NCBI RefSeq assembly: GCF_002854065.1
Contig: NZ_CP024147.1
Origin: Escherichia coli
GTDB lineage: Bacteria > Pseudomonadota > Gammaproteobacteria > Enterobacterales > Enterobacteriaceae
Strand: one strand, 5' to 3'
Length of the DNA: 64,000 nt
The notes under the pieces are model-generated. The model was not told the DNA's origin, did no database searches, and worked only from the letters and a program-made list of their open reading frames with translations. The translations under genes were made by a program, and so were the position numbers. Below are positions 2,445 through 59,355 of this stretch, piece after piece. Position 1 is the stretch's first letter. Each line of letters starts with the position of its first letter.

Positions 2445-4648
2445 TACCGATATGCTCCACTTAACCGACCACCATCACGGGCCTGCTGTTGCATAAAGTC
2501 CGCTGCCGCTTTTTTCCCAAGGTCATAAACCACCTTCAGGGCAGCCGGACCTATCTGCCCGTTCGTGCCATCGTTATTGATCTCGATGTTGTACTGCGGG
2601 GCAAACATCGCCATACCTGAACCACCAATATCCGCCACAACCCCCAGCTTACCGTCAGCACCACGACGCAGTGGCAGAATGGCTTCAGGTCCAGCTTCCC
2701 CCATCACACCCGCGCCTTTTGCAAAAGCAAAAAACGTCGGACGGTTAACCACCGTGCCACTGTAACGACTCAAATCAGCAGACTGATAAATCCCCCCATT
2801 GGCATTCAGGGAAAGGCTGCTGAGATCAAATCCCAGTACACTGCCAATCCCTTTTATCGATTTCATCATGGTTGCCTGCGCCAGGATTTTCGCCATATCT
2901 GACAGCACCGAAGAGGTGAAGGATTTGAAGTTGAGTTTGCCGGTAGTGACAAAAGTTGCCAGGCCATTTCCCATGTTGCTGAAGGCTGATGAGAACACCT
3001 GTTCTGCTGTTCCTGCCGTATTGTCTGCATCCACGGTAAAATCCTGAAATGCACGCAGGACTCCGTTTTTCCAGTTACCCTGCACAACTTCAAGCTGTTG
3101 CCAGTAACGGCGATTCTCATTCAGTTGTCGGTTCAGGCTCTCCGTCAGCGCCTGCTCGGCCTTTCTGTAGTCATCCGTGTTATATGTCCCTTTCTGCTCA
3201 CTATCCCGCCTCAACTGCTCCAGCTGTTGCTGGTATTTCTGGCGAAGACTCAGTTGTACCTGATATCGCTGCCGCTGCTGATCACCCATACCCACCGTGG
3301 CGATATCCAGGTCATGTTGCTGACGCTGAGCGCGCTCTTCTTCAGCCAGTTGACTGGTCAGCTGAATTGTTTTTTTCTTCAGATCGTTGAGTGCCGTCTG
3401 TTTCTGAAGCTCCTGCTGTTTTACATCCAGCAGCGTCAGTGCCTGAATCAGTTCATCTTTACGGGCCAGCACACTCTTTTCATCTGCCGTCAGTTTTTTC
3501 CCGTCCAGATCGCTGATGCGCTGCTGCAGAGCCAGAAGCTGTTTATGCGCTTCTGTCATCTTTTCAGTGGCAATGCCTGCTGACTGTCTTGCAGCAGCAA
3601 TCTGTCCTTCCACCTGTGCCTGTTGCTGACTGTACTGCAGCAATAACCGGGTGGCCTCATCATTACGGGGTTCGCGTGTTTTTTTCTTACCGGATGCCAG
3701 GGCTTTCTCGTAACGTTCATTTTCACGTTGTATCGCCGCATCCCTGACAGCCTGATCGGCGTACTGCATGGCATTAATACGCGCAATTTCACGCTGATGT
3801 CGTGCTGCTTCCGTTTCATTCATCCGGTTCAGTGCAGCATTTTCAGCATTACGGCGTTTCTGTTGCTCCTGATAATTCCGCTCTGCCTGCTCTTTTGCAT
3901 CCTGCAAATCCTTCTGGCGTTTTTTCTCCTGAAGCTCGTTAAGACGCTGCTGATCGTACTCAACCTGAGAAGATGATGCCGTCCAGGGGAGTCTTTTCAC
4001 CCGCGACACTTTCTCCTGTAAAGCGGAAATCTGTTCATCCAGCGAGTCTTCACGACCAATATTCATGGCCGCATCCCAGAAACGACTCCATAAATCAGAC
4101 AGATACTTCAGCGTACTGCCCAGCGCATTGAGGTTATTATCAATATCCGCAGTACGCCGACCGGTTTCCTCTGCCAGTGCAGACATGGCTATCCGTGCCG
4201 CATCACTGGACCGCCCCTGTTCCCCAAGGACGCGTATCTGTTCAAGCTGAGTGGCAGTAAGAAAATGCAGCTCATTGTCCAGAGCCTTCGCGGCATTTAC
4301 AGGATCATCCTTCAGCCGCTTAAACTGATTTATGGTATCGCTGACCGACTGGCCAACCGATCGCTCCATCTGTGCGGCAGCTCTCGCCACCATACGGGAT
4401 GGATCATGAACAGAGTCTGCTGCCTCATGCTTCACACTAAACAGGGCTGGCCCGACATGGTGCAGGGCGTAAACGGGGTTCCCCCTGACAGTCGCAGCCA
4501 CAGGAGTGTTGGCCGCGAGGAGCCGTTTTTTTACTGTGTCCCGGTGAAGCCCAAAGGCCTCAGCGATTTTAAAAACACTCCAGTAATAAGCATCACCGAT
4601 CCCGCTCACATTTGACATAAGCAACTCCATCTGGCAGGTGAAAATCAT
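2444..4648 (-). CDS. tail tape-measure protein (lambda H-like C-terminal two thirds) with a divergent, possibly Nu1/small-terminase-derived N-terminus
   Basis: 734-aa ORF; C-terminus ...INNDGTNGQIGPAALK...RDGG resembles lambda H; N-terminal ~170 aa has an HTH-like segment; ATG at 4648. Confidence 0.65.
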   Translation of the reverse strand: MIFTCQMELLMSNVSGIGDAYYWSVFKIAEAFGLHRDTVKKRLLAANTPVAATVRGNPVYALHHVGPALFSVKHEAADSVHDPSRMVARAAAQMERSVGQSVSDTINQFKRLKDDPVNAAKALDNELHFLTATQLEQIRVLGEQGRSSDAARIAMSALAEETGRRTADIDNNLNALGSTLKYLSDLWSRFWDAAMNIGREDSLDEQISALQEKVSRVKRLPWTASSSQVEYDQQRLNELQEKKRQKDLQDAKEQAERNYQEQQKRRNAENAALNRMNETEAARHQREIARINAMQYADQAVRDAAIQRENERYEKALASGKKKTREPRNDEATRLLLQYSQQQAQVEGQIAAARQSAGIATEKMTEAHKQLLALQQRISDLDGKKLTADEKSVLARKDELIQALTLLDVKQQELQKQTALNDLKKKTIQLTSQLAEEERAQRQQHDLDIATVGMGDQQRQRYQVQLSLRQKYQQQLEQLRRDSEQKGTYNTDDYRKAEQALTESLNRQLNENRRYWQQLEVVQGNWKNGVLRAFQDFTVDADNTAGTAEQVFSSAFSNMGNGLATFVTTGKLNFKSFTSSVLSDMAKILAQATMMKSIKGIGSVLGFDLSSLSLNANGGIYQSADLSRYSGTVVNRPTFFAFAKGAGVMGEAGPEAILPLRRGADGKLGVVADIGGSGMAMFAPQYNIEINNDGTNGQIGPAALKVVYDLGKKAAADFMQQQARDGGRLSGAYR

Positions 4649-55091: not shown

Positions 55092-58197
<3,106 letters not shown>

Positions 58198-58536
58198 TTA
58201 ACCAATTCTGTGTTGCACACAGTTATCTGTGAGAAACCCATGGAAGAGAAATGGAAATAAAAAGAACTGACACCGCGATCAAAAAACCAAAAACTGCAAT
58301 ACCCACAGCGTGATATAGATCGCATTAATCTTTAAAACAGCGTTGACAGAAGCCATAAAACAAGCAATCGAACGTTCGTTCTATCGTATTGGGAACGATA
58401 AACTCTCATGACATATGGCTACGGTGAATATTTTAGGGAGGAATTCCCCGCTCCGGCGAGATTGTATTTTGTACAGGGAAATTAAAGTATGAAACGCGGG
58501 CTCAGTTGTCACCAGCCCGCGGAAAGAGAGAGAGAA

Positions 58537-59127
58537 TCAGGATGCGGTTAAGATACCGCCAATCATCGCGCGTAATCCCTGAGCAAACGACACTTCACGC
58601 GCCAGGTCTTCCGCTTCGATATCGGCCAGTACACCGTAGGTCAGATCCAGCAGTAAACGTGAAGTCATTGCCGTGTTGATGTCTGGGCTTATCTCGCCTT
58701 TTTGCTGGGCATCACGCATCCGCTGAGCAACAAATTCAGTGATCGTCATATGCTTATTTTTAAGCATGGCGGCGACCTGTGGGTTACGCATCCCTTCCGC
58801 CATAATTTCGACCACCAGCGCCCGTTGCCCAAAGGCTTCATGGGTGAGAGAGACAATAGACTCGACCATATAGTCAACAAAATGAATCCCTTCAATCGGT
58901 TCCCGGAAACGAGCCAGCGCCCTCTCCTGATCCTGTAAGATAATCGCCTGAATCAAGGCTTCTTTGGAGATGAAATGGTGATAGAGCGTCCCGGGACTAA
59001 TGGCGCAAGATTTACAGATGGCTTTCATCGAGGCACTGTGAAATCCATTTTCTGAAAAAATCTCTCTGGCAGCATTGAGGATCCGGGTCCGTGTCGGTTG
59101 TGCTTCAGTCTGCATGTTATCCATCAT
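58537..59127 (-). CDS. uidR: TetR-family repressor UidR
   Basis: 196-aa ORF with N-terminal HTH. Confidence 0.9.
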   Translation of the reverse strand: MMDNMQTEAQPTRTRILNAAREIFSENGFHSASMKAICKSCAISPGTLYHHFISKEALIQAIILQDQERALARFREPIEGIHFVDYMVESIVSLTHEAFGQRALVVEIMAEGMRNPQVAAMLKNKHMTITEFVAQRMRDAQQKGEISPDINTAMTSRLLLDLTYGVLADIEAEDLAREVSFAQGLRAMIGGILTAS

Positions 59128-59355
59128 TAAACCATTATAGTTAGCGTGAATAACTAGTTTACCGCGTTGTCAGGTGAGCGCCTATCATTGCTGTTGAATA
59201 GTGCGAAGGCACACTCTATTCGTATGCTTTTCATCCAGCTATTGGTTAACCAATAGCCGTGATTTGGCTGCCAGTTGTTTAGCAGAGACGTTGATGAATT
59301 GCACACGCTATCCCGGTAAACAACACATACGGCTGTTTACCGGTTCGTTAGTGTA

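Follow-up and report, generated by a model that had tools for sequence, protein, structure and literature searches.

The perfect palindrome CGAACGTTCG in the spacer between uidA and uidR of Escherichia coli is probably the core of a ~19 bp operator, the O1 site of the glucuronide repressor UidR (GusR). The second dyad of the spacer, CTGTGT-TGC-ACACAG, would be no operator, and a hairpin behind uidR would end the uidR transcript. The probability of this reading as a whole was put at about 70%, judged from conservation across genera and from published constructs mapped onto the sequence. Both palindromes had been proposed as candidate repressor operators in an earlier note on this DNA, which placed CGAACGTTCG at 58369–58378 and CTGTGT-TGC-ACACAG at 58208–58222, between the two genes; the positions and the placement were confirmed. 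The proposal gained support for the former, which is conserved and lies inside the published O1 deletion, and lost it for the latter, which is unconserved and lies outside.

Locus and sequence comparison

Coordinates refer to the window, the whole stretch of 64 000 nucleotides that was analysed. The window holds the native E. coli uidR–uidA (gusR–gusA) control region, with the following genes and ribosome-binding site.

56335–58146, minus strand: uidA (gusA), β-glucuronidase, 603 amino acids; from the open reading frame and the RefSeq annotation of matching E. coli genomes
58153–58158, minus strand: GAGGAG, Shine–Dalgarno sequence of uidA, at −12 to −7 from the ATG
58537–59127, minus strand: uidR (gusR), TetR-family glucuronide repressor, 196 amino acids; from the open reading frame, translation and homology

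The UidR of the window is 99% identical to proteins named UidR, contains the Pfam domain TetR_N and matches PDB entry 6AYI (‘UidR’) with E = 1e-124; a search of the PDB for a UidR–DNA complex found none. The spacer between the genes is 390 bp long (58147–58536) and holds both palindromes. A 501 bp query spanning it was matched in 5419 of 5426 complete E. coli genomes, with the flanks annotated as uidA and uidR. The window carries a rarer haplotype, 94% identical to K-12 across the spacer query stretch and found at an identity of at least 99% in only five of the 5419 genomes. The ~290 bp preceding the uidA ATG are almost invariant in E. coli. The sole hypervariable part of the spacer, 58436–58487, lies just downstream of the uidR hairpin, where the differences from K-12 are clustered, and shows many substitutions among E. 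coli genomes as well as polymorphism in the length of a C-run.

For comparison, uidR–uidA loci from other Enterobacterales were gathered by way of UidR homologues (47–97% identity to E. coli UidR) from Enterobacter, Cedecea, Salmonella, Klebsiella sp., a rabbit-gut metagenome-assembled genome (MAG), Mixta, Buttiauxella, Erwinia, Pantoea, Yersinia, Winslowiella and E. whittamii. From 17 taxa with a uidR orthologue an alignment was made of the 330 bp upstream of uidA; uidR is divergent in some of these and co-directional in others. Variation of O1 within Escherichia was followed in an alignment of eight E. coli genomes and E. whittamii. At two Enterobacter hormaechei loci (L002 and L003, the latter from the 269 kb record CP070545.1) transposase genes, of IS1 type and others, lie on the flanks of uidR–uidA(–uidB) together with a group II intron reverse transcriptase, and H-NS, FlhC and ParM-like genes stand beside the cluster, which suggests that the uid locus is carried there on a mobile or plasmid replicon.

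The chance level of the palindromes was estimated from 2000 dinucleotide-preserving shuffles of the spacer. A perfect palindrome of at least 10 bp occurred in 30% of the shuffles (P = 0.30), and two or more dyads (arms of 6 or longer, spacer of 0–8) in 16% (P = 0.16), so that neither palindrome exceeds chance on its own. Significance can thus come from conservation alone, which is strong for CGAACGTTCG and absent for CTGTGT-TGC-ACACAG.

The conserved block and the published O1 deletion

Three features make up the conserved upstream part of the spacer.

58369–58378, unstranded: perfect palindrome CGAACGTTCG, probable core of O1, identified from the sequence
58365–58383, unstranded: conserved ~19 bp pseudo-palindrome TAGAACGAACGTTCGATTG (uidA sense), putative UidR/GusR O1, from conservation, position weight matrix (PWM) and its place inside the published deletion
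58342–58348, unstranded: TGTCAAC, of which GTCAA is invariant in 17 of 17 taxa, always 26–27 bp from the O1 centre

In the 17-taxon alignment the block T[A/C]GAA[C/T]GAACGTTCG[A/G]TTG stands out. Its best 15-mer ranked first, with a mean pairwise identity of 0.86 (0.84–0.86 for the element) against a background of 0.42. The PWM found one site of 22–35 bits per taxon, in all 17, at −219 to −262 from the ATG. When the same 17 upstream regions were scanned for a second O1-like site, a possible O2, nothing scored above about 3 bits, and exact regular-expression patterns matched only the one O1-like site in the 64 kb window. The centre of the block lies about 160–164 bp upstream of the inferred uidA start.

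The block also has the dyad size of a TetR-family operator, with a perfect core of 10 bp and a form of 16 bp elsewhere: in a second register, TCGAACG-AA-CGTTCGA, it is a perfect 16 bp palindrome in strain CUWW06, E. whittamii, Erwinia and Pantoea, and the window has one mismatch in this register (TAGAACG). Compared with K-12, the left arm of the window reads TAGAACG rather than TCGAACG and the right flank CGATTG rather than CGGTTG. A further dyad, TATCGT-N7-ACGATA, abuts O1 at 58382–58400; it is present in this haplotype only (K-12 has ACGCTC), is unconserved elsewhere and is probably incidental. In E. coli HCM-26C-1, where the annotation lists uidA as a pseudogene (internal stop), an A-to-G change was seen in the O1 core (CGAGCGTTCG).

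GusR binds two operators, O1 and O2, upstream of gusA, and on deletion of O1 the expression of a gusA-promoter fusion was nearly equal whether conditions were repressing or inducing (Pellegrino et al., 2023; PMC9881133). The two deletion primers, DE6279 and DE6280 (‘to remove O1 site’; PMC9881133), match the window exactly at 58483–58502 and 58302–58323. From these positions the published O1 deletion corresponds to 58324–58482 (159 bp). The earlier note had called for a comparison with characterised operators, and this one puts CGAACGTTCG within the deleted range and CTGTGT-TGC-ACACAG outside it. Within the 159 bp, only the O1 block and the nearby GTCAA are conserved across genera. The deletion proves the region to be GusR control DNA; it is not proof of the 19-mer itself.

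The window site can probably be equated with O1 of the E. coli gus (uid) operon on the grounds that the locus is the same, the primers match exactly and the repressor is 99% identical to UidR (PDB entry 6AYI); it differs in belonging to a rarer haplotype with substitutions in arm and flank, and the comparison is by deletion range rather than by published boundaries of O1. We infer from these points that UidR is the protein that binds 58365–58383.

The uidA promoter and the UxuR-type boxes

The promoter-proximal part of the spacer contains three candidate elements.

58221–58227, minus strand: GATAACT, candidate −10 of the uidA promoter (TGnTAAC/T in other genera), from the conserved block, spacing and dCas9 data
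58268–58283, unstranded: putative CRP-like site 2, TTTGATCGCGGTGTCA, about 62 bp upstream of the inferred start; its TGATC is fixed 91–93 bp from the O1 centre
58309–58324, unstranded: putative CRP-like site 1, TGCGATCTATATCACG, about 103 bp upstream of the inferred start; after the TGTGA-N6-TCACA consensus, partly conserved (0.48)

A scan of the region with the σ70 consensus gave no promoter that reached the threshold, and the lack of a strong consensus promoter fits one that depends on an activator. The promoter has to lie below 58324, since the O1-deletion plasmid still expresses. In published dCas9 interference data the strongest upstream knock-downs were obtained at 58232–58251 (368 units) and 58221–58240 (1064 units), against about 10 000 units uninhibited; mapped to the window, these targets (58221–58251) coincide with the proposed −35-to-−10 stretch. 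Catabolite repression of uidA is known. The uidA promoter is probably weak and CRP-dependent, and its position as given here is provisional.

Boxes of a GntR-family type lie immediately downstream of the inferred start, and a third stands upstream of uidR.

58191–58208, unstranded: box A, GAATTGGTTAACTAATCA, with a HpaI site inside, candidate operator of UxuR/ExuR type (GntR family); 12 of 18 positions match AAATTGGTATACCAATTT, and its TGGTTAAC core is conserved
58171–58188, unstranded: box B, TTAAAGGTTGACCAGTAT, second candidate operator of UxuR/ExuR type; its GGTTGACCAAT core is conserved across genera
59239–59256, unstranded: perfect 18 bp palindrome CTATTGGTTAACCAATAG, of the same GntR-type box class as A and B, 112–129 bp upstream of the uidR start codon

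The UxuR site has been given as AAATTGGTATACCAATTT (PMC8092373). When the spacer was compared with it, only box A reached 12 of 18 positions; the Yersinia counterpart reached 15 of 18. Boxes A and B share the core TTGGT-NN-ACCAA, are conserved in most genera and adjoin CTGTGT-TGC-ACACAG; they are conserved operator-like elements that the earlier note had omitted. Boxes A and B have the core in common with the UxuR/ExuR operator, as does the palindrome in front of uidR; the boxes differ from that operator in a central dinucleotide of TA or TG instead of AT. UxuR is a documented co-repressor of uidABC and its regulon listing includes uidABC; in genomic SELEX UxuR alone did not select uidA. Boxes A and B are likely to be UxuR operators. 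The palindrome in front of uidR suggests that uidR itself may be under control of UxuR/ExuR type, and similar boxes were seen near uidR in Cedecea, Enterobacter sp. R1 and Klebsiella sp.

The CTGTGT-TGC-ACACAG dyad

58208–58222, unstranded: CTGTGT-TGC-ACACAG, Escherichia-specific dyad overlapping the inferred −10/+1 of the uidA promoter, from sequence and conservation

The left arm of the dyad runs on directly from the conserved GATAAC block (TGnTAA(C/T) elsewhere). If this block is taken as the −10, the dyad covers the stretch from about −10 to about +5 of the uidA promoter, and the transcription start would fall at about 58209–58214. Outside Escherichia the stretch is variable and forms no dyad; its mean pairwise identity, 0.36, is below the background of 0.42 and falls to 0.28 in the loop and right arm. 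The surrounding 40 bp show no difference in 4708 of the 5426 E. coli genomes (87%). Three independent changes were found in the right arm, none of them compensated in the left: ACACGG (uidA sense) in 546 of the 5426 genomes (10%), ACGCAG in strain D10 and TCACAG in E. whittamii.

The dyad was compared with the sites of several regulators. The PWM detected no similarity to O1, and there was no match to the UxuR/ExuR motif AAATTGGTATACCAATTT or to TTGGT-NN-ACCAA; the dyad simply abuts box A. A CRP site was rejected on spacing, since TGTG and CACA are 5 bp apart and 8 bp are required (TGTGA-N6-TCACA). Nor did the dyad fit the consensus sequences of LacI/GalR-type regulators, KdgR and CytR. The O1-deletion plasmid, in which GusR control was lost, had retained CTGTGT-TGC-ACACAG, and the dyad is thus not sufficient for GusR control. 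It is most likely a lineage-specific symmetry within the −10/+1 stretch, incidental rather than an operator, which would correct the first candidate operator of the earlier note.

A different assignment would keep both palindromes as UidR operators, with CGAACGTTCG as O1, CTGTGT-TGC-ACACAG as a weaker O2 on the promoter and UidR bridging the two. Two GusR sites, O1 and O2, are indeed drawn upstream of gusA (PMC9881133); the dyad overlaps the inferred −10/+1, an effective place for a repressor, its 40 bp surroundings are the same in most E. coli genomes and an sgRNA directed at it lowers GusA about threefold. It may have a low-affinity role specific to E. coli, for example as the published O2. 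The assignment is nevertheless unlikely. The dyad does not resemble O1 in sequence, and in the PWM scan nothing outside O1 exceeds 3 bits; the dyad is missing from all other genera in which UidR occurs together with O1; uncompensated changes break it in a tenth of E. coli genomes, in strain D10 and in E. whittamii; GusR control disappeared with O1 while the dyad was intact; and chance alone would produce such a dyad.

Orientation and loss of the O1 block

In two of the 17 taxa, Klebsiella sp. BIGb0407 (L016) and the Enterobacteriaceae MAG from rabbit gut (L018), O1 is inverted in place. The flipped asymmetric 22 bp motif stands about 238 bp upstream of uidA and scores 27.0 and 22.3 bits, respectively, on the minus strand of the PWM. 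Inversion of this kind fits a dyad-symmetric protein site and would not be expected of a directional promoter element. The orientation of GTCAA is unchanged in these two taxa.

In two Escherichia species that have uidR and lack uidABC, O1 is decayed in one (L011) and deleted in the other (L012). At the first of these loci (Escherichia sp. MOD1-EC7003, positions 3560–4100) uidR is kept, uidABC is deleted and O1 is degenerate; at the second (‘E. coli’ SCPM-O-B-8794, positions 3560–4100) uidR is likewise kept, the uidABC deletion begins exactly at the start of uidA, and O1 is missing. Both are remnants of a decaying gus locus.

These observations bear on the proposal that the conserved GAACGAACGTTCG element is bound by another protein or forms part of an ancestral promoter of uidR, and that UidR binds elsewhere in the 159 bp segment. 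The deletion evidence is at the level of the region, and an invariant TTGAC on the opposite strand, 26 bp away, could serve as a −35 towards uidR when that gene is divergent. Read from the sequence, no acceptable −10 follows TTGAC at 16–18 bp; the element keeps its position whether uidR is divergent or co-directional; O1 but not GTCAA is flipped in two taxa, which a promoter element could not withstand; O1 and GTCAA are the only parts of the deleted segment conserved across genera; and the element decays where uidA has been lost although uidR is kept. The proposal is therefore highly improbable. A promoter towards uidR composed of GTCAA/TTGAC and O1 was rejected for its lack of an acceptable −10, its retention in co-directional genomes and the independent flipping of O1.

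As a UidR operator, O1 would resemble those of the TetR family (tetO, a 15 bp dyad; QacR IR1, 28 bp) in being a dyad of 16–20 bp beside the repressor gene, with repression released by a ligand. Unlike TetR-family operators generally, O1 of uidA stands ~160 bp upstream of the regulated start and does not overlap the promoter.

RNA hairpins

58495–58521, minus strand: GC-rich hairpin CGCGGGCU...AGCCCGCG, then UUUCAUACUUU, candidate uidR terminator that starts 15 nt behind the stop codon of uidR

The hairpin CGCGGGCT-11 nt-AGCCCGCG that the earlier note had described at 58492–58520 exists, with its arms at 58495–58502 and 58514–58521, a shift of 1–3 bases. As RNA of the uidR strand it folds into a stem of 11 pairs with one bulge and a loop of 4 nt (−18.7 kcal mol−1, z = −3.5), and none of 200 shuffles was as stable. 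The K-12 hairpin is weaker (−15.6 kcal mol−1, z = −1.4), and many shuffles fold at least as well. All Escherichia examined share the CGCGGGC/GCCCGCG stem, whereas the loop varies. The U-tract is poor, with only UUU directly after the stem (UUUCAUACUUUAAUUU; four T in eight bases), and the consensus scan for terminators, which asks for at least five T in eight bases and a loop of 3–8, did not call the hairpin, the perfect arms of which are 11 nt apart. It is like Rho-independent terminators in its GC-rich stem of 8–11 bp, 15 nt after a stop codon and with U residues next, and unlike them in having only three consecutive U after the stem (UUUCAUACUUU). A terminator is functionally expected at this point because read-through from uidR would bypass repression. 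The idea that the hairpin terminates uidR is plausible and unproven, with the strong stem and its conservation within Escherichia in its favour and the weak U-tract and the missed scan against it; we judge it somewhat better than an even chance.

The CTGTGT-TGC-ACACAG dyad could also be read as a 5′ hairpin of the uidA mRNA that controls stability or translation, given that a 6 bp stem with a 3 nt loop is possible, and this is scarcely credible: the fold reaches only −5.9 kcal mol−1 (z = −0.2 against shuffles), the inferred start lies inside the dyad and would leave the left arm untranscribed, natural variants break pairs without compensation, and a search of 58000–58700 for Rfam families found none.

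Fixed geometry and a proposed mode of repression

Spacing was compared between window positions 58171–58383 and loci L003, L006–L008, L010 and L013–L023. Measured from the O1 centre, GTCAA lies at 26–27 bp, TGATC at 91–93 bp, TGnTAA at 142–145 bp and the GntR boxes at about 167–172 and 187–192 bp. These distances are constant within about 2 bp across genera and the intervening DNA is only about 40% identical. With O1 some 160–164 bp upstream of the inferred start, simple occlusion cannot account for repression by UidR.

Purified UidR is said, in work by Little and co-workers from 2018, to bind its operator and to be released by glucuronide, and the uid operator was reportedly mapped by Blanco and co-workers in 1985. 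The gus-repressor patent of Jefferson is said to place a ‘Psp1406I (AACGTT) palindrome’ at about −164 and a HpaI palindrome just downstream of the start, which agrees with the geometry proposed here.

In the mechanism that we favour, a UidR dimer would sit on O1, about 160 bp upstream of the uidA start, when glucuronide is absent. It would repress a weak and probably CRP-dependent promoter with its −10 near 58221–58227, most likely acting together with UxuR, bound to boxes A and B immediately behind the start, within a complex whose geometry is fixed. Binding of glucuronide would release UidR from O1. The hairpin at 58495–58521 would most likely end the uidR transcript, leaving uidA to be driven only by its own regulated promoter. 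Looping by UidR and its cooperation with UxuR are suggested by the spacing and the boxes.

The finding is real and ordinary: the CGAACGTTCG site had already been mapped and is present in published constructs, and the analysis mainly confirms known biology. Its sole added value is the footprint across genera, which describes how far O1 extends, its independence of orientation and the rigid distances that separate it from the promoter and from the UxuR-type boxes. Three minor observations may be new: the architecture shared across genera, the invariance of GTCAA and the inversion of O1. From this footprint testable predictions follow on how a repressor 160 bp upstream shuts the promoter. That the uidA control region is a hitherto undescribed nucleoprotein assembly of fixed geometry we regard as rather unlikely; if true, UidR at about −160 would repress by forming, with UxuR and/or CRP, either a phased loop or a wrapped complex, and GTCAA would bind a further partner. 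The uid/gus control region governs bacterial β-glucuronidase, an enzyme by which glucuronidated drugs are reactivated in the gut and whose gene is the classic GUS reporter, and the identity of the real repressor site matters when glucuronide-responsive switches are built.
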